This document shows positions 1 to 14,542 of a stretch of 64,000 nt of DNA, in pieces; positions within the stretch are counted from its first letter, which is position 1; each line of letters starts with the position of its first letter. The notes beneath the pieces are model-generated. The model ran no database searches. It had not been told where the DNA came from and worked only from the letters and a program-made list of their open reading frames with translations. Made by a program: the position numbers and the translations under genes. Source of the stretch: an uncultured Acidimicrobiales bacterium (lineage in GTDB: Bacteria; Actinomycetota; Acidimicrobiia; Acidimicrobiales; SZUA-35); contig CALKZY010000006.1 in assembly GCA_938002965.1 (NCBI GenBank), positions 129,057-193,056 on the forward strand, in the 5' to 3' direction.

Positions 1-810
1 GAACTGGCTCAGGTCATGTCCCGCTTCGGTGTAGCCGTCACAGTCGTTGAAGGCCTCGACCGTTTGCTGCCCCAGAACGAGCCTGAAGCCGGCCATGTGC
101 TAGCCGAGGTGTTCGAGTCTGAGGGAATCAGCGTGCACACCGGGCAGTTCGCCGAGAAGGTAACCTACGACAACGATCAATTCTCCGTTCACCTGCCGGA
201 CGGAACTGTGACATCGGCTGAGAAGCTGCTGGTAGCCGCCGGTCGCCGGACCTTCCTCAAAGAGTTAGGTGTGGAAGCTATCGGCATTGATCCTGACTCT
301 CGTTTGTTGTCCACTGACGGTAATCAGCGGGTGACCAATGGAGTCTGGGCGGTCGGAGACATCGCCGGAGACGGCTTGTTCACCCACCTGGCCATCCGCC
401 AAGCCGACGTGGCAGCAGCCGACATTCTCGGCAACGAGGTCGAACCGCTCAACCTTGACGCACTCTCAGCCGTCACCTTCACCGATCCCGAGGTGGGCGC
501 AGTCGGGCTAACCGAGGCCGCTGCCACCGAACAAGGCATCAACGTTGCCATCGCCTACAAGCCCGTGGCCCACACCGCCAGAGGCTGGCTTCACATGCAC
601 GGCAACGAAGGTTTCATCAAGCTTGTGGCTGACGCCGACAAGCAGATTCTGGTCGGAGCAACGTCGGTGGGACCCGCCGGCGGCGAGGTGTTGGGTCTGC
701 TATCACTGGCTGTGCACGCCAAGATCCCGATCTCAACTGTCAAATCCATGATCTACGCCTACCCCACATTCCACAAGGGCGTGGAGGACGCGCTCAACGA
801 GTTCTCGTAG
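1..810 (+). CDS. Pyridine nucleotide-disulfide oxidoreductase (dihydrolipoamide dehydrogenase / mercuric reductase-like), C-terminal part; 5' end lies outside the window
   Basis: The frame is open from base 1 (ELAQVMSRFGVAVTVVE...). It carries an NAD-binding region, then a GDIAG FAD motif and a C-terminal dimerisation domain (AYPTFHKGVEDAL). Confidence 0.8.
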   Translation, partial: ELAQVMSRFGVAVTVVEGLDRLLPQNEPEAGHVLAEVFESEGISVHTGQFAEKVTYDNDQFSVHLPDGTVTSAEKLLVAAGRRTFLKELGVEAIGIDPDSRLLSTDGNQRVTNGVWAVGDIAGDGLFTHLAIRQADVAAADILGNEVEPLNLDALSAVTFTDPEVGAVGLTEAAATEQGINVAIAYKPVAHTARGWLHMHGNEGFIKLVADADKQILVGATSVGPAGGEVLGLLSLAVHAKIPISTVKSMIYAYPTFHKGVEDALNEFS

Positions 811-826
811 CGATCACAGGACAGGC

Positions 827-1492
827 TTAGCTACGGCCAGGCAGCGTGTCTCGATCCATCGCCGTCGGCGCACTCTGCCGTGCCACTGACGCCCAGACGG
901 CGTAGAGCGGATCGCTGGCGACTCCTGGGTTTCGAAGCTGAACGACCGGCTCATCAAAGCCGAGAGTCGCGGTGAAGTAAGCGGCGACGATGTCGCAATG
1001 CTGCTGGTCATTCGTTGCCAACCAACCCTTGATGGCCTTGGTCGGAAAGCATCGGTTGGAGAACGTGCATACGAACACGCCACCGGGCCTGGTCACCCGA
1101 GCAACCTCGGCGAAAACCTCCAAGGGCTTGGTGAGGTAGTCGACCGATACACAGCATGTGGCCCCGTCGAACGAGTCTCCACCGAACGGTAGCGTCGGGT
1201 CGACGTTGAGATCTTGCACCACATGGTCAGAGGCCGCCTCATTGGCCTCAAGCTCATTGGCGTTCATGCCCAATGCTGTCAGATGCTTCGGTGGCGTTCG
1301 AAAGTGGGAGATCCATGACGAGCACAAATCCAGAATCCGACCTGACAACGCCAACTCGTCGTACAACTCCCCCACCGCAGCGATGGCCAGACCATCAATG
1401 TGAGTGACGAAGCGGTCGAACTGGTAGAACTCAGCATCGTTGGCTCTGTCTGCACGGTCGAAGAAGCCGTCGGGGTACTGGTCGTAGCTCAC
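827..1492 (-). CDS. Class I SAM-dependent methyltransferase
   Basis: 221 aa with a methyltransferase type-11-like core (ILDLCSSW...LTALGMN...RPGGVFV). Its GTG start overlaps the upstream paaX-like stop as GTGA (1489-1492). Confidence 0.7.
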   Translation of the reverse strand: MSYDQYPDGFFDRADRANDAEFYQFDRFVTHIDGLAIAAVGELYDELALSGRILDLCSSWISHFRTPPKHLTALGMNANELEANEAASDHVVQDLNVDPTLPFGGDSFDGATCCVSVDYLTKPLEVFAEVARVTRPGGVFVCTFSNRCFPTKAIKGWLATNDQQHCDIVAAYFTATLGFDEPVVQLRNPGVASDPLYAVWASVARQSAPTAMDRDTLPGRS

Positions 1493-2352
1493 CCCTCAGA
1501 GACCGCCCACCATTGCTGCGCTGCCGGTAGCAGATCTCTGCGGCGGTGCTCGAAAAGGGCGGCGGCTTGATGACCTGACCAATCGTTAGGAAGTAGTTCC
1601 GCCGGGAGTTCGGGATCAATCAGCGGGAACTTGCGCCACTGGTGCACCAAGTCGACCAGCTCAGTGGCGGCAGCAAAGGGGTCATCGGCATCGTCCCCGA
1701 CCGATTCAAACCGATGTAGAAATTGGCTGTACTGGCGGCCAAGCGCATCAAGATCCCAGGCACCGGCTACAAGGTCGGCGTCAGCACCCAATCCGGCCAA
1801 CTTTGATTCGAACAGGCTGGCTCCCGAGCCGCCAGCGACGCTGTGAGCATCAAGGACGGCCAACACCTCGGGCCGTCGTGCGACCCACGGGCAGATCCAG
1901 GTGCCTCTTGAGGCAGTGCCGCATCCAGTCCAGCGCAGCGCCCGGGCCAATCGAAATTCCGTTGCCCGGTCTAGCGGCTGATCGCCCGGGACGAGCAGAA
2001 GCCACGAACCATTCCATTGCTGTCGCCGTTGCCCAAAGTCGTAGATACGAGATCCGCCGCTTTCCAACTGCCCGAGAAGCTCGTGGCCAAGCACCCAGCG
2101 GACGCTCCTCCCGTGACGTTCGCGCTCAAGCCATCCAGGGCGTTCCATGCGCGACAGCGCTTGCCGGACGGCCTTGTCCTTGATAGCAAGGCCGTCGAGA
2201 AGGGTGACGAGCGTTCGGGTCCAGGCCCCTGCGCCTCCTGGTCGGGCCAACTCACCGAGCACAGTCAACAGCAATCCCCTGGCCGACTCCGCACTAGCGG
2301 TTCCATCGGCGGTGGTCCCAAGAATTGGGGCGGAAGTCGAGCGCAATGCCAT
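1489..2352 (-). CDS. paaX: PaaX-family transcriptional repressor (phenylacetyl-CoA/aryl-CoA responsive family)
   Basis: N-terminal winged-helix region typical of PaaX (LLLTVLGELARPGG...LLDGLAIKDKAVRQALSRMERPGWLERERHGRSVRW). It is transcribed divergently from boxC. I prefer the ATG at 2352 (MALRSTS...) over the TTG at 2388 used in the ORF track. Confidence 0.75.
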   Translation of the reverse strand: MALRSTSAPILGTTADGTASAESARGLLLTVLGELARPGGAGAWTRTLVTLLDGLAIKDKAVRQALSRMERPGWLERERHGRSVRWVLGHELLGQLESGGSRIYDFGQRRQQWNGSWLLLVPGDQPLDRATEFRLARALRWTGCGTASRGTWICPWVARRPEVLAVLDAHSVAGGSGASLFESKLAGLGADADLVAGAWDLDALGRQYSQFLHRFESVGDDADDPFAAATELVDLVHQWRKFPLIDPELPAELLPNDWSGHQAAALFEHRRRDLLPAAQQWWAVSEG

Positions 2353-2358
2353 CAACCT

Positions 2359-2402
2359 ACATTCTACACAACTTGACGCAATGAACAATAAGTGTAGAAT
2401 GT
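2359..2402. promoter_or_regulatory. Perfect 11-bp inverted repeat (ACATTCTACAC N22 GTGTAGAATGT) carrying two outward-facing TAGAAT -10 boxes; candidate PaaX operator and divergent promoters
   Basis: Arms lie at 2359-2369 and 2392-2402. On the plus strand, TTGACG (2373-2378), a 16 nt spacer and TAGAAT (2395-2400) face boxC. The mirror TAGAAT on the minus strand (2366-2361) ends 8 nt before the paaX ATG. Confidence 0.5.
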
Positions 2403-2441
2403 CGGTAGACGCTCACAAGCTTAGGATTGCTCGGGTTTGCC

Positions 2442-4133
2442 ATGACATCTGCCGACATTGACTTTCGAACTAGCCCCGCTCGCTATCACCATTGGACCGT
2501 CGAATACGACGAAGCTGTGGCCACCGTGCGTATGGCCGTCGACCCCGAGCACGGGCTCATGGGCGACTACAAGCTGAAGACCAACTCCTACGATCTCGGA
2601 GTCGACATCGAGCTGTACGACATTGTTCAACGACTTCGCTTCGAACACCCCGAAGTCAAAGTAGTGGTCCTGACCGGCGGCCTGGACAAGATCTTTTGCG
2701 CCGGAGCCAACATTCAGATGTTGGCCGACTCCACCCACGGTCACAAAGTCAACTTCTGCAAGTTCACCAACGAGACCCGCAACGCCATCGAAGATGCCAC
2801 CTCGAACTCCCGACAAACGTGGCTGGCAGCAGTCAACGGCACGGCAGCCGGCGGCGGCTACGAGCTGGCATTGGCCTGCGACGAAATCATCCTGATAGAC
2901 GACCGCGCCTCAGCAGTCTCGCTGCCCGAACTTCCGTTACTGGCCGTCCTACCCGGAACCGGCGGCCTAACTCGGGTGGTGGACAAACGCCTAGTTCGGC
3001 GAGACCTGGCCGATGCCTTCGCCACCAAGACCGAGGGAGTCCGAGGCAAGACGGCAATGCAGTGGGGCCTGGTCGACCACGTAGCGCCAGCCAGTTCGTT
3101 CGAGGAGGCGGTCGCCGCTCGGGTACAGGAACGGGCATCGACATCAGACCGCCCCGGAGACACATCCGGGATTGAGTTCACCGCCCTCGATCGAATGATC
3201 GACGAAGACACGATCTCCTATGGCGGCGAAAATCACAGTGCGGATGCAAGTGTCACGGTAACCATCGACCGGACCACCGGAACAGCGACCATCACCGTTG
3301 CCGCCCCGGAACTTCACCAACCCGAAACCGCCGATGAGCTGGTAGCCGCAGGAGCCGAATCCTGGTTGCTCTCGGTTGTCAGACAGCTCGATGACGCCAT
3401 CCTCCACCTGCGCTTCAACGAAACCGACATCGGAACTTGGATGTTCGCTACCACGGGCCAGGCCGAGGCCATCGTCCAAGCCGAAGCGGTGTTGGGAAGC
3501 GAACCGGACCACTGGCTGGTGCGGGAAGTCCGCCTCTACTGGGCTCGAACTCTCAAGCGCATCGACGTGTCGGCCCGCACGCTTATGGCTGCGGTCGAGC
3601 CCGGAAGTTGCTTCGCCGGAACGCTAGCTGAACTCCTGTTGGCCGCCGACCGCAGTTTCATGCTGGAAGGAACATGGGAGGACGACGACAACCCTCCTCC
3701 CCCGGCAACCATGACGCTGACCGATGCCAACCTTGGCTGGTACCCAATGTCAAACGGTCTTAGCCGACTCGAAACCCGGTTCTGGCAGCGACCGGACGCC
3801 TATGCCCAGGCAGCCAAGACCGTTGGCTCGGCCTTGACCGCAGCAGAAGCTCTCGAAGCCGAATTGGTCACGTTCACGCCCGACGATCTCGACTGGCATG
3901 ACGAACTTCGCCTAGTCCTAGAGGAGCGCAACAGCTTCTCCCCCGATGCTCTGACCGGGATGGAAGCCAGCTACCGCTTCCCCGGCCCGGAAACGATGGA
4001 AACCAAGATCTTCTCTCGGCTTACCGCATGGCAGAACTGGATCTTCCAACGACCCAACGCCGCCGGGCCCGATGGTGCACTTCGCCGCTTCGGTACTGGC
4101 TCTCGACCCGACTACGACCGCAACCGAATTTGA
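2442..4133 (+). CDS. boxC: Benzoyl-CoA-dihydrodiol lyase (2,3-epoxybenzoyl-CoA dihydrolase) BoxC, crotonase superfamily
   Basis: Long blocks characteristic of BoxC: NSYDLGVDIELYDIVQRLRFEHPEV, FCAGANIQML, HKVNFCKFTNETRNAIED, GGGYELALACDEI, LPGTGGLTRV. Length is about 560 aa. The start could instead be the TTG at 2427. Confidence 0.9.
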   Translation: MTSADIDFRTSPARYHHWTVEYDEAVATVRMAVDPEHGLMGDYKLKTNSYDLGVDIELYDIVQRLRFEHPEVKVVVLTGGLDKIFCAGANIQMLADSTHGHKVNFCKFTNETRNAIEDATSNSRQTWLAAVNGTAAGGGYELALACDEIILIDDRASAVSLPELPLLAVLPGTGGLTRVVDKRLVRRDLADAFATKTEGVRGKTAMQWGLVDHVAPASSFEEAVAARVQERASTSDRPGDTSGIEFTALDRMIDEDTISYGGENHSADASVTVTIDRTTGTATITVAAPELHQPETADELVAAGAESWLLSVVRQLDDAILHLRFNETDIGTWMFATTGQAEAIVQAEAVLGSEPDHWLVREVRLYWARTLKRIDVSARTLMAAVEPGSCFAGTLAELLLAADRSFMLEGTWEDDDNPPPPATMTLTDANLGWYPMSNGLSRLETRFWQRPDAYAQAAKTVGSALTAAEALEAELVTFTPDDLDWHDELRLVLEERNSFSPDALTGMEASYRFPGPETMETKIFSRLTAWQNWIFQRPNAAGPDGALRRFGTGSRPDYDRNRI

Positions 4134-4178
4134 GGCCAACTGTTTGGCCATCGGCCAAACGTTCCCAAGGAGACCAAC

Positions 4179-5606
4179 ATGGCACTAGTTGACATCAACG
4201 CCAAGATCCCAAACAACGTCGACCTGGCCGGCGACCGTCGGCTGCAGCGAGCGCTGGAACAATGGCAACCCAAATTCATTCGCTGGTGGGAAGACCTGGG
4301 CCCCTCGGCGTTCAAGCGAAACCCCGTCTTTCTACGCACTGCTGTCGATGTGGGCCGCGATGGCTGGGCCAACTTCGATCACGTGGAAATGCCCGACTAC
4401 CGGTGGGGCGTATTCCTGGCCGACCCCGAACCAGAACGTAAAGTAGCGTTCGGTGACCACAAAGGACAAGACGTCTGGCAGGAGGTCCCGGGCGAGTACC
4501 GTTCCGAACTCCAGCGTCTCATCGTCGTCCAAGGCGACACCGAGCCGGCCTCGGTCGAACAACAACGACATCTGAGCCTCACCGCCCCTTCGCTCTATGA
4601 CATGCGAAACCTGTTCCAGGTCAACGTCGAGGAGGGCCGCCACCTGTGGGCCATGGTTTACCTGCTCCACCGCTACTTCGGTCGTGACGGGCGAGACGAA
4701 GCGGACGAGATGTTGGAGCGACACTCCGGTGACGCCGACAACCCTCGCATTCTGGGTGCGTTCAACGAAGAGACCCCGGACTGGTTGTCGTTCTTCATGT
4801 TCACCTACTTCACCGACCGCGACGGAAAGTACCAACTGGCGTCGCTGCGGGAGTCGGCTTTTGACCCCCTAAGTCGAACTTGTGACTTCATGTTGAAAGA
4901 AGAGGCCTACCACATGTTCGTGGGAACCTCGGGCGTGACGCGGGTTGTGCAACGAACAGCTGAGCTGATGAACCAGCACGGCACAGATGACATCCACCCC
5001 CACGGCGGCCTCAACCTCGACCTGCTCCAGAAGTACATCAACTTCCACTACTCGGTCTCACTGGACCTGTTCGGTGCCGAAACGTCAACCAACGCCGCCA
5101 ACTACTTCGCCGCTGGGATCAAAGGACGGTTCCAGGAGGAGCGTCGAGACGACGATCACCTGCTCAAGACCAGCTATCGGAACGTGCCGACGGTGGAAGG
5201 CCAAGGCACCGAACTGCGGATAGGCAGCCGCGAAGTTACTCAACTGGCGGCCCTCAACGAAACGCTCCGCGACGACTACATCGAAGACTGCCAAAAGGGT
5301 CTCGACCGCTGGAACCGAACGCTGGCGGGGGCGGGCATCGACTTTACCTTCTCGCTTCCCCATTCGGCCTTCAACCGAGAAGTTGGTGTCTTCCGGGACA
5401 GCCGAATCTCACCCAGCGGCCACGTGCTAACCGAAGACCAGTGGGCAGGGTCGGCCGACAACTGGCTGCCAACTGCCGATGACCGAGCGCACGTCGGCTC
5501 CCTGATGGTCGGCGTCACCAAACCTGGCGTTATGGCCGGTTGGGTGGCCCCTCCGGCCCAGGGCGTTCACCAAAAGCCGGTTGAATACGAGTACGTACGG
5601 CTGTAG
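4179..5606 (+). CDS. boxB: Benzoyl-CoA 2,3-epoxidase (oxygenase) subunit B, di-iron protein BoxB
   Basis: 475 aa. The N-terminus (IPNNVDL..DRRLQRALEQWQPKFIRWW, MPDYRWGVFLA) and EEGRH/EEAYH di-iron motifs are typical of BoxB. It lies immediately downstream of boxC. Confidence 0.9.
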   Translation: MALVDINAKIPNNVDLAGDRRLQRALEQWQPKFIRWWEDLGPSAFKRNPVFLRTAVDVGRDGWANFDHVEMPDYRWGVFLADPEPERKVAFGDHKGQDVWQEVPGEYRSELQRLIVVQGDTEPASVEQQRHLSLTAPSLYDMRNLFQVNVEEGRHLWAMVYLLHRYFGRDGRDEADEMLERHSGDADNPRILGAFNEETPDWLSFFMFTYFTDRDGKYQLASLRESAFDPLSRTCDFMLKEEAYHMFVGTSGVTRVVQRTAELMNQHGTDDIHPHGGLNLDLLQKYINFHYSVSLDLFGAETSTNAANYFAAGIKGRFQEERRDDDHLLKTSYRNVPTVEGQGTELRIGSREVTQLAALNETLRDDYIEDCQKGLDRWNRTLAGAGIDFTFSLPHSAFNREVGVFRDSRISPSGHVLTEDQWAGSADNWLPTADDRAHVGSLMVGVTKPGVMAGWVAPPAQGVHQKPVEYEYVRL

Positions 5607-5624
5607 GTCGTCCATACTGGCTCG

Positions 5625-6422
5625 ATGGCTACAACCTCATGGACCGACCATGACGCTCAACCCACCGCCTGGCGTGAAGCGGGCTCCGGCGAGGTTGTCA
5701 TGTTCCTCCACGGATTGGGCGGCACCAGAGAGTCATGGAATCCACAGCTCCGAGCGCTGTCCGACACCTGGCGCTGTGTCGCATGGGATATGCCGGGCTA
5801 CGGCGCGTCGGCTCCAGCGGCACCGCTGAACTTTGAAGCCATCGCTCATCGCCTAGTGGACTTGCTGGACACGCTCGAAGTTGCCAGAGCCACTCTCGTC
5901 GGGTTGTCCTTTGGCGGTATGCATGCACTGCATACCGCTATTGGCTTCCCGGACCGCATCACTCGACTCGTCCTAGCCGACACCAGCCCGGCTTTCGGCC
6001 TCAACGGCACGACAGCCGACCAGTGGAAGCGGGACAGGCTCGCCCCGCTCGACGGTGGCGCTACACCAGCCGCCATGGCGACCGACGTCATCGACGCCAT
6101 CAGCCACCGGACGTTGGAGGAAAACGTTCGAGCCGAGTTAGTAGCCGGTTTCGGCCGAATTTCGACCGCCGGCCTCCGGGCGGCCGTCGAATGCCTACCG
6201 GACCACGACGTTCGACCCTACCTCGAACAGATCACGCAACCCGCGCTGGTAATCGTCGGGGCGCAGGATCACGAGACCCCTGTCGAGTACGCTCGCTTGC
6301 TGGCCGATGGGCTACCAAACGGGATCCTCCACGTTCTTGACGATGTCGGTCACCTGTCGCCGTCGGAAGCACCAACCGAGTTCAATGAACTCATTCGATC
6401 CTTTCTGAACGCAGCACCATGA
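5625..6422 (+). CDS. Alpha/beta-fold hydrolase (3-oxoadipate enol-lactonase-like)
   Basis: 265 aa with HGLGG near the N-terminus, the nucleophile elbow GLSFGG and a C-terminal GHL(S) His motif. Confidence 0.75.
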   Translation: MATTSWTDHDAQPTAWREAGSGEVVMFLHGLGGTRESWNPQLRALSDTWRCVAWDMPGYGASAPAAPLNFEAIAHRLVDLLDTLEVARATLVGLSFGGMHALHTAIGFPDRITRLVLADTSPAFGLNGTTADQWKRDRLAPLDGGATPAAMATDVIDAISHRTLEENVRAELVAGFGRISTAGLRAAVECLPDHDVRPYLEQITQPALVIVGAQDHETPVEYARLLADGLPNGILHVLDDVGHLSPSEAPTEFNELIRSFLNAAP

Positions 6423-6435
6423 CAGAGCCAGCGCC

Positions 6436-7629
6436 ATGACAAGATCACCACTTGCCACCCCTGAACGCATGGCGATTGTTGACCGTGTGCGCCAACTCGG
6501 CCCAGCCATCGCCGCCCGGGCGGTTGGACACGACCTGGCCGCCGAGTTCCCGAAGGCCAATTGGGACGACTTCACCGAGGCTGGCCTCCTAGGCATCTGC
6601 ATCCCCGCCGAGGACGGCGGCTTGGGCGGGGACTTCGTCGCCTACGCACTGGCCTCCGAGGAGTTGGGGCGCCACTGCGCCGCCACCGCCCTGACGTTCA
6701 ATATGCATGTGGCCACCACATTGCTCACCGGTCAGATCGCCGATGACATGGACCTCTCCGACGATGATGGCGAAACGCTCCGGCAACGGCGCTCCGTCTT
6801 GCGCCGGGGCGTGATTGACGACGGCATCATCCACTCCCAGCCATTCTCAGAAGGCGTCTCGGCCGGTGCCACGTCGGGATTCTCTACCCGGGCACAACCA
6901 GTCGATGGTGGCTATCGGGTCAGTGGTCGCAAGATCTTCGCTTCGCTCAGCGGCGGTGCGCACATCAACAACGTGGCTTGCATGGTGGAGGGAGACGAGC
7001 GGGTCAGACTGCTCGGCGTACCAGCCAATGCCGAGGGAGTAACACTGGAAGGCTCATGGGACCCGTTGGGCATGCGGGCCACCGACTCTCGCACCTTGGT
7101 CATGGAGAACGTCTTTGTTCCCGACGACCACGAATGGCTCCCCCCAGGGGTCTTCGACCAGGCCGCTCAGCGTTGGCCCTACTTTTACATGACGCTGTCG
7201 TTCAGCTACCTAGGTCTCATGCAAGCCATCATCGACGCCACCTCCGAGTACCTCATCGGTGACGGCGGGTCCACCTCACGACGCAACCACCCCATCAAAC
7301 AGCAGGGTTGGGCCCAAATGAATCTGATCTACGAACAGGCTCAAGCCCTTTGCTACCGAGTTCTGGGTGAGGTCGGGGTGGATCCTTCAGCGGCTCAAGT
7401 ACGCCGAGCGTGGGCATCGATGGTCACCACTATGGAGGCGGCACCCGACTTGGCGTCACTCGCTCTGCGAGTCTGCGGCGGTCGCTCGCTGCTTCGCCCG
7501 TCGGCTCTGGAACGGTTCTATCGAGACGCCCGCTGCGGAGCCACCATGTTGCCGTGGAGCGTCGAGGTGTGCCTGGAACGACTGGGCCGCGCTGACTTGT
7601 TTCCCGACGCAACCGAGAACCCGGCCTAA
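6436..7629 (+). CDS. Acyl-CoA dehydrogenase family protein
   Basis: 397 aa with the ACAD three-domain layout (GLLGICIPAEDGGLG, FSEGVSAG...GYRVSGRKIFAS, C-terminal helical domain). Confidence 0.8.
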   Translation: MTRSPLATPERMAIVDRVRQLGPAIAARAVGHDLAAEFPKANWDDFTEAGLLGICIPAEDGGLGGDFVAYALASEELGRHCAATALTFNMHVATTLLTGQIADDMDLSDDDGETLRQRRSVLRRGVIDDGIIHSQPFSEGVSAGATSGFSTRAQPVDGGYRVSGRKIFASLSGGAHINNVACMVEGDERVRLLGVPANAEGVTLEGSWDPLGMRATDSRTLVMENVFVPDDHEWLPPGVFDQAAQRWPYFYMTLSFSYLGLMQAIIDATSEYLIGDGGSTSRRNHPIKQQGWAQMNLIYEQAQALCYRVLGEVGVDPSAAQVRRAWASMVTTMEAAPDLASLALRVCGGRSLLRPSALERFYRDARCGATMLPWSVEVCLERLGRADLFPDATENPA

Positions 7630-7664
7630 CTGGCACGGCAAAATTGAGACACGGAGCGGCAGCT

Positions 7665-8702
7665 ATGACCGAATGGACCTGGATCGAGCGTTACGCCACC
7701 CAGTTCAACGCCTGCAACGTCGGCCCATCAACGGCCACTGTTGTCCTATCGGAGAGCCGGAGCAGGCCGGAAATCGTCGATACCGCTCGCTTGGCGCTAT
7801 CCAGCCTTGGCGCATCCGTCATTGACATTGTTCTCCCCACACCGGCGAACCCAGGGCCACTGCCCATTCGTTCAACCGGGGCATCACAGGCAATAGCGGG
7901 CAACGAGGCCGCCATCGCCGCGCTCCAAGCCGCCGACTTCGTGGCCGACTGCACCGTGGAAGGCCTCCTACACGCCCCTGAACTGGGAGTCTTGCTGGAA
8001 GCAGGCACCCGGATTTTGATGATCTCCAACGAACACCCGGAGAACACCGAACGGTGGCCTCACGACCCGGGCCTAGCCGAGCGCGTTGACCGCGGAGTCG
8101 AGTGGATGAACGAGGCGGAGACAATGACCGTCACATCCGTAGCGGGAACGAACCTGACAATCAGTCTTGACGGGGCGTTTCGCGCTGGCTCCTACGGCTG
8201 GTGCACCGATCCCGGCAGCATCGCCCACTGGCCTGGGGGTCTGGTCTTGGCTTTCCCCGCCAGCGGCTCAGTAAACGGCACACTGGTTCTGGCTACGGGC
8301 GACGTCAACTTGACCTTCAAGCAGTATGTGACCGATCCAATCACCTGCCACGTCACCGACGACCACATAGTGGATGTCAAAGGCGACGGCGTCGACACAG
8401 AGCTATTCCGAAGCTATTTGAACGCCTTTGAAGAACCGGACGCCTGGGCTGTCAGTCATGTCGGTTGGGGTATGAACACGGCTGCACGATGGGAGTCGCT
8501 GGCCATGTGGGACAAAGGTGATCACAACGGCACCGAGCTGAGGGCTTTCGCAGGCAACTTCCTTTACTCCACGGGAGCTAACGAGGTAGCCGGCCGATTC
8601 TGCCGGGGACACTTCGATTTGCCGATGCGTAACTGCACGGTCTCATTGGACGACCGAGTGGTCGTTGCCAACGGCGTCCTATGCCCCGAACTATCACCCT
8701 GA
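7665..8702 (+). CDS. NicX-family protein (2,5-dihydroxypyridine 5,6-dioxygenase-like; M29 aminopeptidase fold)
   Basis: Blocks resemble P. putida NicX as I recall it: HWPGGLVLAFP, GTLVLATGDVNLTFKQY, VSHVGWGMN, RAFAGNFLYSTGAN, HFDLPMRNCTVSLDDRVVV. The ATG at 7665 follows a GGAG; the ORF track starts at the TTG at 7644. Confidence 0.6.
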   Translation: MTEWTWIERYATQFNACNVGPSTATVVLSESRSRPEIVDTARLALSSLGASVIDIVLPTPANPGPLPIRSTGASQAIAGNEAAIAALQAADFVADCTVEGLLHAPELGVLLEAGTRILMISNEHPENTERWPHDPGLAERVDRGVEWMNEAETMTVTSVAGTNLTISLDGAFRAGSYGWCTDPGSIAHWPGGLVLAFPASGSVNGTLVLATGDVNLTFKQYVTDPITCHVTDDHIVDVKGDGVDTELFRSYLNAFEEPDAWAVSHVGWGMNTAARWESLAMWDKGDHNGTELRAFAGNFLYSTGANEVAGRFCRGHFDLPMRNCTVSLDDRVVVANGVLCPELSP

Positions 8703-8718
8703 ATCTGGGGGGGGAAGC

Positions 8719-9456
8719 GTGCCGGACCTGATCATTGATATACACCGATCCGACCAGCGGTTCGACACCTCAATCGGATGGCTTGACTCCAAGCACAGTT
8801 TCAGCTTCGGTCGCCACTATGACCCCGACAACACCAGCCATGGGCTTCTGATTGTTTCTAACGACGACTCCGTGGCACCAGGAGGCGGATTTCAGCCGCA
8901 CTCCCACCGGGACATGGAAATCGTCACGTGGGTTCTCGAAGGCAAGCTCGAGCACCGCGATTCTGAGGGCAATCATGGTGTTCTCTACCCTGGACTGGCT
9001 CAACGTATGAGTGCGGGCAGCGGTATTACACACTCCGAACTGAACCACTCCCAGACCGACCCCGTCCACTTCATTCAGATGTGGGTCCCACCAGATACAT
9101 CAGGGGTACAACCGTCCTACGAGCAGCGAGACGTCAACGAAGCTTTGACCGGCGGGGACCTTGTCACCGTAGCTTCGGGTACCGGTGACACAGACACCAT
9201 TCACATCCACCAAGCAGGAGCATCCATGGCGGTGGCCCGGATGAAAGTCGGCCAATCGGTAGCGTTGCCCAACAGCCCGTTTGTCCACGTCTTTATGGCT
9301 CGTGGCTCGGCGATGCTCGACAGCCAATCAGGTAGCGAGACGTTGGCCGTAGGCGACGCGGCGAGAATACGCCATGCTGAGTCGCTCAGCGTGACCGCTC
9401 ATAGCTCGTCGGTCGAAATCATCGTGTGGGAGAGCAGCGCCTCGGCCGACCGCTAG
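8719..9456 (+). CDS. Pirin-family (bicupin) protein
   Basis: Pirin N-terminal motifs (GWLDSKHSFSFG, GFQPHSHRDMEIVTWVLEG.LEHRDS.GN). The GTG at 8719 is preceded by GGGGGGGAAGC, and the upstream part of the ORF overlaps the previous gene. Confidence 0.8.
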   Translation: MPDLIIDIHRSDQRFDTSIGWLDSKHSFSFGRHYDPDNTSHGLLIVSNDDSVAPGGGFQPHSHRDMEIVTWVLEGKLEHRDSEGNHGVLYPGLAQRMSAGSGITHSELNHSQTDPVHFIQMWVPPDTSGVQPSYEQRDVNEALTGGDLVTVASGTGDTDTIHIHQAGASMAVARMKVGQSVALPNSPFVHVFMARGSAMLDSQSGSETLAVGDAARIRHAESLSVTAHSSSVEIIVWESSASADR

Positions 9457-9477
9457 AGGTCAACGTGACACGTCGAA

Positions 9478-10266
9478 CTATGACGTCTCAATCTCTACGT
9501 CTTCGGTAGTTTCCAGGCTCGGGCCGCCGCCTAGAAGGTCGGGGAGATTGGACACAATCAGGGCCAAGGCCAAGGCAGCGATGATCACCTGTGCGGGCAG
9601 CAGACTCACCGGACTTGAACCGCCGGGTTCAGCAATCAACTCCCGGCGACTTGCGCTGACCTCGGAGGCGAGCTCATCAAGATTGGCCGTTGAGCGGTCC
9701 AAGTCTGCAGCTACAGTCCGCAGGTCGGCCGCCAGCTCAACGGTGTTGGGACCCAGCTCAGCTGTCTCCGTCGACAGTCTGGTCAAGGACTCTTCGGCCG
9801 CCCGCAAGTCATCGACCAACGGATCGATGTCGGTTAGGGACGGATCGACTTGGGTGATGCGGGTGTCGAGAAACGGAATGTTGTCGAGAATCCCGTTGAT
9901 ATCGCTAATGCTGGCATCCAACTGCGCCAGGTTGTTGGACACTGCGGTGAGAACCGGTGGCAGCGTCGCCGTAACATCCGCTACATCACCGGCCACCTCG
10001 GACGTTGCATCCGACGTCGCAGCCACCGATTCCAGCGACACCGCTGATGCTTCGAGAGCAGCGGCGGTTGACGTCGCAACCTCGCTTGAGCTGGCCAGCG
10101 TGGCTTCCACCGACTCAAGTGCTCCGGCCACCGTTTCCACCGAGTCGTTTGCGCCGAACTCGACCGAGCCCAGCGCAATCCAACCGAACGCGGCGCAGAC
10201 AGCGGCAAGCAAAGATGAAACAAGCGCAAAGAAGCGCCGAGATGTCGCCACCGATTCAGAACCCAT
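9478..10266 (-). CDS. Hypothetical membrane protein, one TM at each end, Ala/Ser/Glu/Asp-rich helical ectodomain
   Basis: N-terminal TM (FFALVSSLLAAVCAAFGWIAL) and C-terminal TM (LLPAQVIIAALALALIVSNL). No recognisable family. The equally long antisense ORF is Ser/Arg-rich and was rejected. Confidence 0.5.
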   Translation of the reverse strand: MGSESVATSRRFFALVSSLLAAVCAAFGWIALGSVEFGANDSVETVAGALESVEATLASSSEVATSTAAALEASAVSLESVAATSDATSEVAGDVADVTATLPPVLTAVSNNLAQLDASISDINGILDNIPFLDTRITQVDPSLTDIDPLVDDLRAAEESLTRLSTETAELGPNTVELAADLRTVAADLDRSTANLDELASEVSASRRELIAEPGGSSPVSLLPAQVIIAALALALIVSNLPDLLGGGPSLETTEDVEIETS

Positions 10267-10302
10267 GAGCCGAAGTGTACTGCCCAGGCGATTTCGCCGA
10301 GA

Positions 10303-10557
10303 GTGTCACACCGATTGCCCATAGTGACCGTCATGTCCACTTCGGCACTCCTAGCAGGTCAACTTCTCGCACCGACTCAACCTGAGATCTCCGAACACCG
10401 CCTCGAACTCATGGAGATGGCGGTCGAACTCGAGGTCGACAGAAACGACTTTGGCTTCCACCACAGTGGCGAAGAAGCCGTCTGGGATGAGCTGCAGGCC
10501 GAATTCGAGATCCGGGCCGAACGCCTGGGTCGAACCTGGGTAGCTGAAGCCGCCTGA
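10303..10557 (+). CDS. Hypothetical small acidic protein
   Basis: This ORF fills an otherwise empty gap of about 350 bp. No motif was recognised. Confidence 0.3.
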   Translation: MSHRLPIVTVMSTSALLAGQLLAPTQPEISEHRLELMEMAVELEVDRNDFGFHHSGEEAVWDELQAEFEIRAERLGRTWVAEAA

Positions 10558-10613
10558 CCGTCGGCCATGGTGGCATCGGCGGTGAATCCTGGGTGGTTCG
10601 CTAGCGTGAACCC

Positions 10614-12257
10614 ATGGCCTCGCAACCAGACTTTCGTTACACCGACCTTCTTCCGCTTGGCGAAGATACAACCCCGTACCGGTTACTGACGACACAAGGC
10701 GTCGAAACCATTGATCTGGGGGAACGGAGCTTCCTCTCGGTCAGCGACGACGCCCTGCGCACGCTCGCAGCCGAAGCCATTCGCGATATCTCCCACCTGC
10801 TACGGCCGGGCCATTTGCAGCAGTTGAGCAACATCCTCGAAGACCCGGAAGCATCAGCCAATGACCGGTTCGTGGCCACCGAGTTGCTTCGCAATGCCAA
10901 TATCGCATCTGGCTTCGTCCTACCCGGGTGTCAGGACACCGGGACCGTCATCATCAAAGGAAAGAAGGGTCAACAGGTCCTGACTTCGGGCGATGACAAG
11001 CAACCCCTGACTCAAGGGGTGTTCGAAACCTTCCAAACGTCCAACCTCCGCTACTCGCAGATGGCTCCACTTTCGATGTGGGACGAACGCAACACAGGTA
11101 CCAACCTGCCGGGCGAAGTCAAGATCGAGGCTGTACCTGGCGATGCCTACAAGTTCATGTTCATGACCAAAGGTGGGGGCTCGGCCAACAAGAGCTATCT
11201 GTTCCAGGAAACCAAGGCGCTGCTCAATCCGCAGTCCTTGCGCGCATTCCTCAACGAGAAGCTGCGGCTGCTGGGAACCTCAGCCTGTCCGCCCTATCAC
11301 CTCGGGCTGGCCATCGGCGGTACATCAGCTGAATACTCACTCGAAGTAGCCAAGCTGGCCTCCACGCGGTATCTCGACTCGCTGCCTACGAGCGGATCGG
11401 AACTTGGGCACGGCTACCGCGACGTTGAGATAGAGGCCGAGGTCCTCCAATTGACTCAGGAGTTCGGAATCGGAGCCCAGTTCGGAGGCAAGCACTTCTG
11501 CCACGACGTACGGGTTATCCGTCTTCCCCGCCACGGTGCCTCCTTACCCGTCGGCATCGCTGTTAGCTGCTCGGCGGACCGCCAGGCGCTGGCCAAAATC
11601 ACCTCAGAGGGGGTGTTCCTAGAAGAGTTGGAACGGGATCCGGCCAAGTACCTCCCGGAGGTGACGGGAGAAGCCCTCTCACCCGAGACCGTCCAGATCG
11701 ATCTAGACCAACCGATGGACGCCATCCGCAGTCAGCTGAGCGGACATCCGGTGAAGACCCGTCTGTCCTTGACCGGAACATTGGTCGTTGGCCGCGATAT
11801 CGCCCACGCCAAGATCAAGGAACGACTCGACGCCGGCGAGGCAATGCCGGAGTACCTGCGGGAGAATCCGATCTATTACGCCGGCCCGGCTAAGACGCCG
11901 GAAGGTTATGCATCAGGCTCGTTCGGGCCGACTACGGCCGGTCGAATGGACTCCTATGTTGAGCAGTTCCAGGCAGCCGGCGGCTCGCTGGTAATGCTGG
12001 CCAAGGGCAACCGAAGCGACCAGGTAGCGCAAGCCTGCAAGCGCCACGGTGGCTTTTACCTCGGCTCCATCGGCGGTCCGGCTGCCCGGCTGGCCAAAGA
12101 CTCCATCCGCCACGTCGAAGTGCTTGAATATCCGGAGCTTGGCATGGAAGCCATCTGGAAGATCGAAGTAGAGAACTTCCCGGCCTTCATAGTCATCGAC
12201 GACAAAGGCAACGACTTTTACGCCGAGACCTCTCGCCCAGTCGACTTAAAACTGTAG
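10614..12257 (+). CDS. Class I (Fe-S dependent) fumarate hydratase, fused alpha/beta type
   Basis: 547 aa with FumA/FumB-type blocks ([61 protein letters not shown]). Confidence 0.9.
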
Positions 12258-12302: not shown

Positions 12303-13058
12303 CTAGACGATGGTCAGGCCCCCATCAACCACCAGAACCTGGCCGGTTACGTATCGGGCCGATACCAACGAGATCACGGCATCGGCACAATCCTCCGGGC
12401 TGGCCGTGCGCCCCAGTGGGGCGCGCCGCTGAACCGAGCGTCGGACGGCATCCCAGTCGGCGGTCCAGGGCGTGTCGACCAATCCAGGGGCGACAGCGTT
12501 GAACCGGACTGGGCCGTGAGCCCGGGCTAATAGGACCGTCATGTGGTTAAGCGCCGCTTTGGACATGGCATAGGCGACCGACGAGCCCACCGGGCGAACA
12601 CCGGCGATCGAGGTGATCGTTACCACGTTGGGATCGGACGATTCACGCAGGAGTGGTATGGCAGCTTTGGTCAGCTTCCAGGTTCCAAAGACGTTGACAT
12701 CAAACGTTTTCTCGAAGACGTCGTCGGTCAGCCCGTCAAGATCCTCGTGAGGAATGACCGTCGTCCAGCCTGCATTGTTGACCAGGATGTCAAGACCACC
12801 AAAGTGCTCTACAGTTCCTTCGAGAAGACGGGCCGGTCCTTCTTCGGAGGCGATGTCCGCCTGAATGTACGCCGACTCGCCCGGCAACGCTTCCGATACC
12901 GCCTGCCCAGCTTCCACCGATGAGGCCGAGTTGACGACAACCTTTGCTCCGAGGGCTGAAAGCCGGTGGGCCGTAGCCTCCCCTATCCCGCTCGATGAGC
13001 CGGTGACCAGCGCCACCCGTCCGGACAGGTCACCCGGTATCGAATCATTGGTACTCAT
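12303..13058 (-). CDS. SDR-family oxidoreductase
   Basis: Contains TGSSSGIG (TGxxxGIG), NNAG and a YAMSKAA (YxxxK) catalytic motif. Its ATG overlaps the stop of the upstream M20 gene (ATGA at 13058). Confidence 0.85.
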   Translation of the reverse strand: MSTNDSIPGDLSGRVALVTGSSSGIGEATAHRLSALGAKVVVNSASSVEAGQAVSEALPGESAYIQADIASEEGPARLLEGTVEHFGGLDILVNNAGWTTVIPHEDLDGLTDDVFEKTFDVNVFGTWKLTKAAIPLLRESSDPNVVTITSIAGVRPVGSSVAYAMSKAALNHMTVLLARAHGPVRFNAVAPGLVDTPWTADWDAVRRSVQRRAPLGRTASPEDCADAVISLVSARYVTGQVLVVDGGLTIV

Positions 13059-14542
13059 TACTTTGCCCCTTCAAGAGTTGTGTTGGAAGCCGTCTTGGCC
13101 GACAACACATCGGCAATACAACAGGTCAGCTTTTCGGCGTAGGCAACGTCAAGAAACTCGTTTGGACCGTGGGCGTTCGAACCCGGACCGAGCACTCCCG
13201 TAATCACGAACTGGGCTGCTGGAAACTTCTCGCCCAACATCCCCATGAATGGAATAGTTCCCCCTTCACCGAACAGTTGCATACCCCGACCGAAGTTGAC
13301 GGTCGACGCTTCGTCAAGAGCCTCTCTTAGCCATGGCGCAAGGTCAGGAGCGTTCCAGCCATCGGCGCTGTCAGCTTCGCCAAACGACACCCGGGCGCCG
13401 TAAGGAGGATCGGCTTGCAGAACCTCGGCCAGTTCACGCTCGACGGCTTTCGAGTCGGCGGTTGGGGGAAGCCGCAGCGAAAGCTGAAGCGATGTATAGG
13501 GCCGCAGCACGTTACCGGCTTTCGCCGTAGGAGGTAGGCCGTCAGCGCCGACATAGGCCAGCGATGGCTTCCACGTTCGAGCCAGGAGGGCCTCAGCCGG
13601 TTCGGCAGCCACCGGTGAAGCGCCATCAACAATCGGATACTCCTCGTACACATACGAGCCGAGCAGACCGGCTGTGGCCCTGGCTTCGACCTCCCGATAC
13701 GCCGGGATGTCAACGTTGGCCGATTCGAGCAACACCCGACCATCCGCTGCGTCCTCGATGCGGTCCAGCAATTGCCGGATGATACGAAAACTCGAAGGCA
13801 CAACGCCGCCGGCACTACCGCTGTGGATCCCCTCATTGACGATCTCGACAGTGAGCTTGCCGAAGACCATTCCCCGCAACGACGTGGTCAACCACAGGGT
13901 GTTGTAGTCGGCACAGCCGGAGTCCAGGCAGATGACCAAGTCGACGTCACCCAACCGCGTCGCCAAAGCATCAACGTGGGCCGGAAGGTCCGGGCTGCCG
14001 GACTCCTCAGATGCCTCGATCAGGACTACCAAGCGTCCATGGGCGCCACCGGAGGCCTGGACAGCCTCCACAGCGGCAAGTGAGGCGTAAGCGGCGTATC
14101 CGTCGTCGGCCCCTCCCCGCCCGTACAGCCGCGAGCCCTCCATGACCGGCTTCCACGGTCCCAAGCCATCTCGCCAACCTTCCATTTCTGGCTGCTTATC
14201 CAAGTGTCCGTACAACAGCGTCGTTGTTCCGTCAGACCCGACGTCGCCGTCACCACCGAACGGTTCGATCTCAGCCATGATCACCGGGGTTCGTCCAGGC
14301 AACTCTTCGACCGAGACCGACATACCAACTATGGGTCGCGCCCGCATCCAGTTGTAGATCTGGTCGACGGCCTTTTGGATGTAGCCGGTCTCCGCCCACC
14401 CCGGATCAAATGCCGGTGAGAGAGCGGGAATGGCAATGTAGTCCCTCAGCTGCGGAACGATCTCGTCGGGCCACAAAGCGGCAATCCGCTCCTGCGGGCC
14501 CGACTCCGACGGGGACTCGGCTTGGCTGTCTGTACTCGTCAT
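13058..14542 (-). CDS. M20-family metallo-dipeptidase
   Basis: 494 aa with YGHLDKQP, RGGADDGY and EASEESGS metal-binding blocks typical of the M20 (ArgE/DapE/DUG1-like) family. Confidence 0.8.
   Translation of the reverse strand: MTSTDSQAESPSESGPQERIAALWPDEIVPQLRDYIAIPALSPAFDPGWAETGYIQKAVDQIYNWMRARPIVGMSVSVEELPGRTPVIMAEIEPFGGDGDVGSDGTTTLLYGHLDKQPEMEGWRDGLGPWKPVMEGSRLYGRGGADDGYAAYASLAAVEAVQASGGAHGRLVVLIEASEESGSPDLPAHVDALATRLGDVDLVICLDSGCADYNTLWLTTSLRGMVFGKLTVEIVNEGIHSGSAGGVVPSSFRIIRQLLDRIEDAADGRVLLESANVDIPAYREVEARATAGLLGSYVYEEYPIVDGASPVAAEPAEALLARTWKPSLAYVGADGLPPTAKAGNVLRPYTSLQLSLRLPPTADSKAVERELAEVLQADPPYGARVSFGEADSADGWNAPDLAPWLREALDEASTVNFGRGMQLFGEGGTIPFMGMLGEKFPAAQFVITGVLGPGSNAHGPNEFLDVAYAEKLTCCIADVLSAKTASNTTLEGAK

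Follow-up and report, generated by a model that had tools for sequence, protein, structure and literature searches.

We consider it likely that a seven-gene array in a marine Acidimicrobiales genome joins two unrelated catabolic modules in one transcription unit, through a recent, lineage-specific rearrangement, and that its epoxidase BoxB is served by an unlinked electron donor. The array lies in a window of 64,000 nucleotides (the whole stretch of DNA analysed) and consists of genes for a PaaX-family regulator, BoxC, BoxB, an alpha/beta hydrolase, a flavoprotein with the acyl-CoA dehydrogenase (ACAD) fold, a NicX homologue and a pirin. An earlier note had described it from the sequence alone, and we confirmed all seven genes at the positions given there. 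The same arrangement occurs on an independent contig from a different sample (the twin contig, L104) and in two further species of the genus (G023 and G018), so it is not an assembly artefact.

The first module would be the core of the aerobic benzoyl-CoA (box) pathway in the form usual for actinobacteria. The boxC gene (positions 2442–4133, plus strand) encodes a 2,3-epoxybenzoyl-CoA dihydrolase that scores 841 bits on TIGR03222 (cut-off 712 bits) and matches PDB entry 2W3P with an E-value of 2.8e-190. It is followed by boxB (4179–5606, plus strand), for the di-iron oxygenase component of benzoyl-CoA 2,3-epoxidase, with 773 bits on TIGR03225 (cut-off 499 bits). BoxB matches PDB 3PER, the characterised A. 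evansii enzyme, with an E-value of 4.7e-203 and approximately 65% identity over its full length, and all six di-iron ligands (E120, E150, H153, D211, E240 and H243) are kept. Judging from this strong orthology, BoxB would epoxidise benzoyl-CoA and BoxC would open the ring to give 3,4-dehydroadipyl-CoA semialdehyde and formate.

The canonical aerobic box cluster of Aromatoleum (Azoarcus) evansii and Burkholderiales comprises the BoxA/BoxB epoxidase, BoxC, BoxD, a benzoate-CoA ligase and BoxR. Compared with the canonical boxC-boxB-boxA copy of Mycetohabitans rhizoxinica pBRH01, the window has the same boxC-boxB order and a BoxB that is 61% identical, but BoxA and BoxD were found neither in this genome nor in its lineage, a PaaX-family regulator stands in place of the helix-turn-helix BoxR, and the ligase, which belongs to the canonical cluster, is displaced, with no copy found in the assembly. 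The usual core in this lineage is a paaX gene with boxC-boxB-benzoate-CoA ligase: boxC, boxB and an AMP ligase are conserved neighbors in 45 loci, and with 550 bits on TIGR02262 the ligase of the relatives exceeds the cut-off of 375 bits. As the earlier note stated, the cluster contains neither boxD nor a benzoate-CoA ligase gene, and this extends to the whole 91%-complete assembly. No benzoate-CoA-ligase-family gene above the cut-off is present in either (the assembly's best match, at 281 bits, is MbcS-like or acetate-CoA-ligase-like), nor is there a BoxD orthologue (the best match is at most 29% identical). Because the genome is 91% complete, an absent ligase or donor gene could sit in its unassembled part.

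The missing BoxA, BoxD and ligase would be accounted for if BoxB and BoxC used a different aryl-CoA, and the lack of a high-scoring ligase and of BoxD in the assembly fits this idea. We nevertheless regard it as very unlikely, given the similarity of BoxB to the A. evansii enzyme and its intact metal site. Its orthologues in the same genus and family are 76–93% identical to it, and several of them adjoin the 550-bit ligase gene; G023, with the same fused order, retains a benzoate-CoA ligase elsewhere in its genome; and BoxA and BoxD are absent across the lineage regardless of gene context. The proposal of a variant aryl-CoA epoxidase pathway in the earlier note thus stands as regards the electron donor only, and not as regards the substrate.

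A profile search for BoxA, whose positive control on Mycetohabitans pBRH01 gave 682 bits, found no BoxA in our genome. At E ≤ 1e-20 there was none in 81 relatives either, 39 of which have BoxB above the cut-off, near-closed genomes included. BoxA was likewise not found in seven further BoxB-positive Actinomycetota, in Pseudonocardia humida, Nonomuraea salmonea, Ca. Poriferisodalis and two Rhodospirillales MAGs, or within 10 kb on either side of the best 80 BoxB loci. The textbook reductase is absent across the actinobacterial box lineage, and its absence is normal there. The cluster does lack boxA, as had been claimed, and so does the assembly, but the earlier view that this is special to the cluster was mistaken, because absence is the rule in the phylum. 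A canonical boxA, boxD and ligase elsewhere in the genome, which would speak against the earlier reading, were looked for without success. Among 401 sampled Pseudomonadota genomes, 28 have BoxB and 17 have BoxA; all 17 BoxA genes are in BoxB-positive genomes, on the same contig and 50–270 bp from BoxB, and in the other 11 BoxB-positive genomes BoxA was not found. In a phylogenetic tree of BoxB, the window's protein falls in a 14-member Acidimicrobiales clade (support 99) nested in a 30-member, all-actinobacterial clade without BoxA (support 98), and proteobacteria without BoxA are interspersed among BoxA-positive ones.

Searches of the assembly failed to find three of the five textbook pathway genes, and a comparative study counts box clusters without BoxA as incomplete (PMC10803450), as would suit decaying box genes that are no longer functional for want of BoxA, BoxD and the ligase. 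We think this unlikely. Neither boxB nor boxC is disrupted, and both exceed their curated cut-offs by a wide margin; the metal ligands and the promoter/operator are conserved; and of the 24 other genomes in the genus 23 have BoxB, as do 37 of 48 in the family, at the identities given above. The action of BoxA, according to one account (PMC4498308), is transient only and takes minor amounts of the protein. The wide retention of the boxCB pair without BoxA argues for function with another donor.

Since the whole lineage lacks BoxA, some other donor must serve BoxB. Its two electrons would come from an unlinked source. The likeliest is a small carrier (ferredoxin or flavodoxin) that receives them from a housekeeping NAD(P)H reductase, because ferredoxin or flavodoxin genes lie directly behind boxB in other lineages without BoxA–a 7Fe-type ferredoxin in at least five, probably six, Pseudonocardiaceae-type loci, and a flavodoxin in two proteobacterial genomes. 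These carrier-linked clusters (boxB-ferredoxin, in some cases with boxD, in the Pseudonocardiaceae type, and boxB-flavodoxin in some Pseudomonadota) are known from genomes alone as far as we searched. They share with the window the lack of BoxA, and the Pseudonocardia BoxBs belong to the same actinobacterial clade as the window's. In contrast, no ferredoxin, flavodoxin or reductase was found conserved beside boxCB in the window and its Acidimicrobiales relatives, so the locus offers no donor candidate.

As the second module, the hydrolase would form a conserved cassette with a flavin monooxygenase of the ACAD fold and a NicX-type Fe(II) dioxygenase, to hydroxylate, cleave and hydrolyse a para-dihydroxylated ring that probably contains N. 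The first gene of this trio (5625–6422, plus strand) encodes an alpha/beta-fold serine hydrolase with matches to Pfam Abhydrolase_1 and Abhydrolase_6; it is nearest to PcaD-like models, under their cut-offs, and the trio hydrolases of relatives are 52–73% identical. The second (6436–7629, plus strand) encodes the ACAD-fold flavoprotein, whose best PDB matches are 5Z8T, deposited as 'Flavin-containing monooxygenase', and 5GJ7 (E = 3e-32), with KijD3 next, DnmZ and DszC/TdsC lower, and true ACADs also in the list. The position of the ACADs' catalytic Glu is not conserved. The label of acyl-CoA dehydrogenase in the earlier note is therefore probably wrong; by these sequence features the protein is probably a two-component flavin monooxygenase. 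Group D flavin monooxygenases (5Z8T, the nitrososynthases KijD3 and DnmZ, and DszC/TdsC) are its best sequence matches and among its best fold matches, and in them the catalytic Glu is likewise not conserved, but identity is at most 30% and the window encodes no partner flavin reductase. The third gene (7665–8702, plus strand) is for the NicX homologue, of the NicX family (M29 fold) of non-haem Fe(II) ring-cleavage dioxygenases. It matches PDB 7CN3 (E = 2e-55) with H105, H265, S302, H318 and D320 conserved, and its copy on the twin contig carries a precomputed match to Pfam PF26233. The last gene of the array (8719–9456, plus strand) encodes a pirin-family bicupin (Pfam Pirin and Pirin_C_2), and in the loci examined across the relatives, linkage of pirin to the trio was confined to this species and G023.

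In Pseudomonas putida KT2440, the lower pathway of 2,5-dihydroxypyridine uses NicX and the deformylase NicD. P. putida S16 has Hpo and Nfo for this pathway (PMC3831237). When compared with the nicC-nicE-nicD-nicX-nicF copy of Caballeronia plasmid p1, the window's NicX homologue keeps the Fe(II) ligands and His105 and is paired with an alpha/beta-fold hydrolase, but it is only approximately 35–38% identical to NicX and falls into a subfamily of its own, annotated 'peptidase M29'. The hydrolase is no NicD orthologue (23% identity to the NicD-type hydrolase of the canonical nic cluster), so a deformylase role would be by analogy only. The place of the group-A monooxygenase NicC is taken by an ACAD-fold flavoprotein, and the amidase NicF and the isomerase NicE are absent from the cassette.

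The trio also has counterparts in cassettes on plasmids of Ensifer adhaerens (p1) and Aminobacter aminovorans (pAA02), with the order M29-ACAD-hydrolase-TetR-glutamine-synthetase-like (GS-like)-(flavin reductase)-APC permease. They have the same three core genes (49% identity between 'peptidase M29' and the NicX homologue, and 35% and 33% for the other two) and, like the Acidimicrobiales home island of the trio, they are linked to a GS-like ligase. They differ in gene order and in a hydrolase of approximately 430 residues, and include versions with a flavin reductase gene, whereas in the window the trio stands apart from the GS-like ligase gene and no flavin reductase gene adjoins it.

The normal island of the trio in Acidimicrobiales would include, besides a GS-like ligase and an aldehyde dehydrogenase, a P450, a LigB dioxygenase and an ADC-fold protein. 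One relative (G035) has the trio precisely in the space that separates LigB from the GS-like gene; our own genome has this island without the trio, on contig C46, where ADC-P450-LigB is followed by a gap of 740 bp and then the GS-like gene, and no remnants of the trio were found on that contig. The trio is away from boxCB, on other contigs or megabases off, in six genomes (G001, G003, G033, G035, G016 and G048), and is present in two in which BoxB was not found (G031 and G074). Only in this genome (G000), G023 and G018 does it lie behind boxB, where it occupies the usual place of the benzoate-CoA ligase. This self-standing, conserved trio, located elsewhere in most relatives and behind boxB in three sister species only, gives good support to the suggestion in the earlier note that one operon unites two catabolic modules.

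The genes from boxC to pirin are separated by 45, 18, 13, 35 and 16 bp, counted on the sequence, and the 35-bp gap before the NicX homologue shrinks to 14 bp if a TTG at 7644 is the start. A strong boxC promoter (TTGACG, 16 nt, TAGAAT; 2359–2402, plus strand) matches at 10 of 12 positions and is the sole promoter-like site within 1400–10700. No terminator-like sites were found between the genes on the plus strand, and we predict from these features that the array is one transcription unit. The promoter lies inside an 11-bp inverted repeat, the probable operator, and the layout ATTCTACA..TTGACG..TGTAGAAT upstream of boxC is kept in at least 10 actinobacterial loci. Divergent from boxC is the regulator gene (1489–2388, minus strand), with matches to Pfam PaaX, PaaX_M and PaaX_C and 153 bits on TIGR02277, under the cut-off of 265 bits; the gene call on the twin contig has a later start (287 residues). 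A PaaX-family gene adjoins boxC in 19 related loci. The inverted repeat over the boxC promoter is probably the binding site of this repressor, which an aryl-CoA probably releases, by analogy with PaaX and phenylacetyl-CoA.

Tight spacing behind a single promoter could also mean that the trio and pirin act with BoxB and BoxC under PaaX control in one integrated, undescribed pathway, the fusion being adaptive co-regulation. The substrate could then be a compound that gives benzoyl-CoA plus a hydroxylated N-heteroaromatic or aminophenol-type ring–for example, an N-benzoylated amine. Three species share the fused order, with 72–93% protein identity, and at least two further arrangements, independent of this one, bring NicX-type modules close to boxCB (L030, with divergent NicX-hydrolase-M24-PhyH-Amdase, and Pseudonocardia L071); in G006 the distance is 11 kb. 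Such proximity is more frequent than expected for unrelated genes and may reflect a functional link. The trio is beside another PaaX-family regulator in G003 and G074, which hints at an acyl-CoA effector, and an M20 peptidase gene (13058–14542) is close to the box genes here and in G003 and G023. We still find a single pathway rather unlikely, because linkage between the trio and boxCB is missing in most relatives, the trio is also present in genomes where no BoxB was found, and where it lies elsewhere the genes conserved around it are not box genes but those for a GS-like ligase, an aldehyde dehydrogenase and a flavin reductase. Moreover, the product of BoxC is aliphatic, so no ring remains for a NicX-type enzyme, and catabolic genes frequently cluster without a common pathway.

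In the preferred reading of two unrelated modules, the trio would have moved out of its island in the ancestor shared by this species, G023 and G018 and come to lie after boxB, at the site of the relatives' benzoate-CoA ligase gene, with pirin joining the array in addition; transcription from the boxC promoter now probably reads through into the trio. The locus is mainly a quirk of gene order, on top of a widespread question about the electron donor of BoxB.

The array at 1489-9456 lies in a 4.69-Mb marine-metagenome assembly of the Acidimicrobiales (Actinomycetota; 57 contigs, 91% complete). The earlier note's cluster of paaX-like, boxC, boxB, hydrolase, ACAD-fold, NicX-like and pirin genes is real, and every gene was located by domain or structure matches. 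BoxC (2442-4133) scores 841 bits on TIGR03222 (cut-off 712 bits), and BoxB (4179-5606) matches TIGR03225 over its full length (model positions 1-471) at 773 bits (cut-off 499 bits). When BoxB is aligned to A. evansii BoxB (PDB 3PER), all six di-iron ligands (E120, E150, H153, D211, E240 and H243, numbers counted off the printed alignment) are kept, and the sole change in their neighborhood is that the adjacent residue H242 is Y. As a member of the TIGR03225 family, it is the predicted oxygenase component of benzoyl-CoA 2,3-epoxidase. The regulator gene (1489-2388, minus strand) is divergent from boxC and its product has three Pfam PaaX domains, but it reaches only 153 bits on the equivalog model TIGR02277 (cut-off 265 bits), and we class it from these scores as a PaaX family member and not the phenylacetate PaaX. 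The NicX homolog (7665-8702) matches the solved NicX structure (PDB 7CN3) at E = 2e-55 over residues 26-350; L104, a twin contig from another sample, encodes the identical protein with PF26233 (NicX) on record, and our local Pfam copy gives no match. The other members are an alpha/beta hydrolase (5625-6422), an ACAD-fold flavoprotein (6436-7629) and the pirin (8719-9456).

From boxC to the pirin gene, the intergenic gaps are 45, 18, 13, 35 and 16 bp. L104, otherwise near-identical to the window, differs from it by a 41-bp tandem duplication that runs from the end of the hydrolase gene into the start of the flavoprotein gene (L104:12235-12300; window 6397-6440), and makes the hydrolase-flavoprotein gap 54 bp in L104 instead of 13 bp. 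An assembly chimera is ruled out, because the same junction is present in L104 and in G023 and G018, two sister species of the same genus.

In textbook biochemistry, BoxB requires BoxA, a reductase with two [4Fe-4S] clusters and a FAD/NADPH domain. We searched for BoxA with the TIGR03224 model (cut-off 459 bits), which gives 682 bits on the positive control, Mycetohabitans plasmid pBRH01 with its annotated boxC-boxB-boxA. That the cluster has no boxA was correctly noted, and none was found in the rest of the assembly either: the best TIGR03224 match in the genome is 33 bits, and tblastn with Mycetohabitans BoxA found nothing at E ≤ 1e-5. The missing gene does not set this cluster apart, as had been supposed, because BoxA is absent across the phylum as sampled. 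BoxB is above cut-off in 39 of 81 genomes (80 relatives plus our own) and, within the genus, in 23 of the 24 genomes besides ours; BoxA was found at E ≤ 1e-20 in none of the 81, near-closed ones included, and in none of the 80 best BoxB loci within ±10 kb. Sampling 401 Actinomycetota genomes gave 8 further ones with BoxB above cut-off, and BoxA is absent from all 7 of these that were checked. Nor was it found in Pseudonocardia humida, Nonomuraea salmonea or Ca. Poriferisodalis.

Among 401 sampled Pseudomonadota, BoxB is present in 28 genomes and BoxA in 17. All 17 are BoxB-positive, with BoxA on the same contig and 50-270 bp from BoxB, and the other 11 of the 28 (~40%) are without BoxA. In a BoxB tree made by a quick maximum-likelihood search, the window sequence and that of G023 form a pair (support 99) within an Acidimicrobiales clade of 14 rows (99), which is nested in a 30-row clade that is entirely actinobacterial and BoxA-less (98). 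BoxA-less proteobacteria appear at several separate places among BoxA-positive ones (for rows L088, L089 and L095, lack of BoxA was judged from the ±10 kb loci alone). From the genome surveys and these scattered rows, we conclude that BoxA has been lost or replaced repeatedly, and that it is uniformly missing from Actinomycetota as sampled. The literature we found holds only incidental mentions of BoxA-less box clusters in Actinobacteria: 'boxBC' is listed in one paper (PMC12008989), and another treats such clusters as incomplete (PMC10803450). A separate observation concerns locus L160 (G217:C12:191231-192670), from the same class, whose BoxB groups with proteobacterial sequences outside the actinobacterial clade, a placement that points to probable horizontal acquisition; BoxA was not found in its genome.

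Some BoxA-less clusters have other redox proteins beside BoxB. A gene for a 112-aa 7Fe-type ferredoxin lies directly 3' of boxB in at least five, and probably six, Pseudonocardiaceae-type loci (L049:6205-6543 and L071:11426-11767; also L057, L059, L060 and L086), and in L049 and L071 the next gene codes for a BoxD-like aldehyde dehydrogenase. Similarly, two proteobacterial genomes without BoxA, G789 and G573, have a flavodoxin gene that adjoins or follows boxB (L135:10766-11278 and L134 at ~8848-9306). This linkage suggests that small soluble carriers can serve BoxB, and the Pseudonocardiaceae-type ferredoxin may stand in for BoxA's iron-sulfur part. Around Acidimicrobiales boxCB, no substitute reductase, ferredoxin or flavodoxin is conserved within ±10 kb, and tblastn with the Pseudonocardia ferredoxin found no match in our genome. 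The only donor candidates there are generic proteins with partial matches to the BoxA model, both unlinked to the box genes: a 2x[4Fe-4S] ferredoxin on contig C8 and a 603-aa NAD-binding flavoprotein on contig C13. A pyridine-nucleotide-disulfide oxidoreductase gene upstream of the array (window 1-810) was considered as the BoxB reductase and rejected, since it is not conserved beside the box genes in G023. For a donor search, the ferredoxin- and flavodoxin-linked clusters are better entry points than the window locus, which gives no pointer.

In the conserved actinobacterial core, a PaaX-family gene and boxC-boxB are divergently oriented, and an AMP ligase gene usually comes after boxC-boxB; the ligase is beside boxCB in 45 of ~90 loci and PaaX in 19. 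For this GC-rich DNA, a GC3-based filter was applied to the gene calls. The genome-wide search for BoxA, BoxD and the ligase that the earlier note had proposed found none of them above cut-off in the 91%-complete assembly. For the benzoate-CoA ligase family (TIGR02262, cut-off 375 bits), the best match is 281 bits, to a protein more like MbcS or acetate-CoA ligase, as against 550 bits for the box-linked ligase of relatives. G023, which has the same fused gene order, retains an orthologue of this ligase on another contig. The best BoxD candidate has at most 29% identity to the box-linked aldehyde dehydrogenases of BoxA-positive proteobacteria, which themselves are 42-46% identical to their counterparts in Pseudonocardia-type box clusters, and the PaaN-DH model, used as a proxy for BoxD, gives 140 bits (cut-off 563 bits). 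We also discarded the hydrolase behind boxB as a box-associated hydrolase or lactonase: it is only 26% identical to the box-linked hydrolase of Mycetohabitans, whose better match is on contig C47. An M20-family peptidase gene (window 13058-14542, minus strand) is near the box genes in the window and in G023, and adjoins paaX in the related genome G003. Some M20 enzymes hydrolyze N-acyl amino acids, for example N-benzoyl ones, and it is a speculation that this peptidase could feed benzoate into the pathway.

The array has a single promoter-like site (TTGACG-16-TAGAAT, 2373-2400), in front of boxC, and we found no terminator-like sites between the genes on the plus strand. The promoter is embedded in an inverted repeat at 2359-2402 (ATTCTACA..TTGACG..TGTAGAAT), which probably serves the PaaX-family regulator as its operator. 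At least 10 actinobacterial loci keep the same layout 5' of boxC (L105, L108, L110, L113, L024, L032, L034, L031, L103 and L044, spanning Acidimicrobiales and other Actinomycetota), and we therefore conclude that the box unit is old and under selection.

The genes behind boxB have a different distribution. NicX orthologs (54-84% identity) occur in 35 of the 81 genomes, and the hydrolase, ACAD-fold and NicX genes travel together as a trio. It is unlinked to boxCB (on other contigs or megabases away) in G001, G003, G033, G035, G016 and G048, and it also occurs in two other genomes, one in which BoxB was not found (G031) and one without a BoxB match (G074). Only in our genome, G023 and G018 is the trio directly behind boxB, and the latter two rank closest to our genome in the identity of both BoxB (91-93%) and NicX (82-84%). 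Of the readings offered earlier, the fusion of two modules, into what is predicted to be one operon, is thus the supported one. In relatives, the trio belongs to an island with genes for a glutamine-synthetase-like ligase, an SSADH-like aldehyde dehydrogenase, a P450, a LigB-type dioxygenase and an ADC/MppR-fold protein. Our genome has this home island at C46:3700-11900 (aldehyde dehydrogenase, ADC-fold, P450, LigB and GS-like ligase; proteins 63-81% identical to the relatives'), in which we found no remnants of the trio. The LigB and GS-like genes are 740 bp apart on C46, with a 129-aa ORF with a signal-peptide-like start in the gap, and in G035 the trio sits exactly between these two genes. 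The box unit of G003 has the window's flanks (fumarase, M20 peptidase, acyl-CoA ligase o540 and others), yet a benzoate-CoA ligase gene behind boxB. This comparison indicates that the trio and pirin genes took the place of the ligase gene, with a local inversion. Separately, G003 (L109:4868-5653) and G074 (L122:10801-11565) encode, beside the trio, a PaaX-family regulator of another type, which shares 27-29% identity with the one in the window and has no ortholog in our genome.

In the printed 7CN3 alignment, the NicX homolog keeps H265, S302, H318 and D320, which we take to be the Fe(II) ligands, and H105, presumably at the substrate site. This conservation indicates a probably active Fe(II) dioxygenase that would cleave the ring of a para-diol resembling 2,5-dihydroxypyridine. 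It is only 35-38% identical to the products of plasmid genes annotated as 2,5-dihydroxypyridine dioxygenase, whereas its nearest relatives (49%) are annotated 'peptidase M29'. For the ACAD-fold protein, the earlier label of acyl-CoA dehydrogenase is probably wrong. In the PDB, it is matched best by 5Z8T, whose deposited name is flavin-containing monooxygenase, and by 5GJ7 (we found no paper for either), with the nitrososynthase KijD3 next; DnmZ and DszC/TdsC are further down the same list, which also holds true acyl-CoA dehydrogenases. At the site of the catalytic Glu, where SCAD presumably reads RDARITEIYEG (the Glu being in the YEG of SCAD and MCAD), the protein reads RDARCGATMLPW and the YEG motif after RDAR was not found; the HMMER alignment to 1JQI ends just short of the motif. 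5Z8T and KijD3 have the same pattern, and the RDARCGATMLPW segment is invariant in 11 trio homologs. A fold search with the predicted model (pLDDT 73) did not separate monooxygenases from dehydrogenases. The PDB matches, the lack of the catalytic Glu and a flavin reductase gene in related rhizobial cassettes together argue that the protein is probably a two-component flavin monooxygenase. The hydrolase has the alpha/beta fold and a G-L-S-F-G nucleophile motif, but it is no ortholog of the N-formylmaleamate deformylase NicD/Nfo, having 23% identity (pairwise E = 0.02) to the alpha/beta hydrolase of the Caballeronia nicC-E-D-X-F cluster. With the Hpo/Nfo pathway as the model for a hydrolase step following ring cleavage (PMC3831237), it may by analogy act at that stage.

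The rhizobial cassettes are on plasmids p1 of Ensifer adhaerens (L130:8983-16711) and pAA02 of Aminobacter aminovorans (L131:5248-17361). Both have genes for a 'peptidase M29' (49% identical to the window's NicX homolog), an 'acyl-CoA dehydrogenase family protein' (35%) and an alpha/beta hydrolase (33%), then a TetR regulator, a glutamine-synthetase-family protein, a flavin reductase and an APC permease. The trio cassette thus crosses phyla. Its neighbors on pAA02 code for a cupin dioxygenase, an FAA-family hydrolase and a C-N hydrolase, and the first two are 56-65% identical to the products of genes beside the trio in G003 and G074, which suggests horizontal transfer. We found no paper on this M29/ACAD/GS-like cassette.

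An alternative to chance joining is that the two modules work together: the opening of the benzoyl-CoA ring and the NicX-type trio would be coupled in one operon under PaaX control, for the degradation of a compound that yields both a benzoyl moiety and a hydroxylated moiety of N-heteroaromatic or aminophenol type. Two unrelated Actinomycetota have NicX-type modules directly beside boxCB. In L030 (2453-7290), genes for NicX (53% identical), a hydrolase, an M24 peptidase, PhyH and an Amdase-family (maleate-isomerase-like) protein are divergent from boxC, and in Pseudonocardia (L071:2676-6302) an Amdase-family gene, a 31%-identical NicX and an Amidohydro_2 gene are upstream of boxC-boxB-ferredoxin. 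In G006, NicX is 11 kb from boxB. The recurrence of these independent layouts keeps a link between box and NicX functions alive at low probability, and the coupled operon itself we consider improbable. If true, it would account for the arrival of NicX-type modules next to boxCB on at least three separate occasions in Actinomycetota.

The locus contributes two points, the first being that the absence of BoxA is lineage-wide, and the second that the downstream genes are a relocated cassette and not substitutes for missing box genes. Since BoxA was found in none of the searched BoxB-bearing Actinomycetota and is lacking in ~40% of the sampled BoxB-bearing Pseudomonadota, many box clusters now termed "incomplete" are probably functional with another electron donor, which has consequences for inferring aerobic benzoate degradation from genome and metagenome data. 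The trio is part of a widespread, uncharacterized ring-cleavage cassette of Acidimicrobiia and rhizobial plasmids that merits its own biochemical study.
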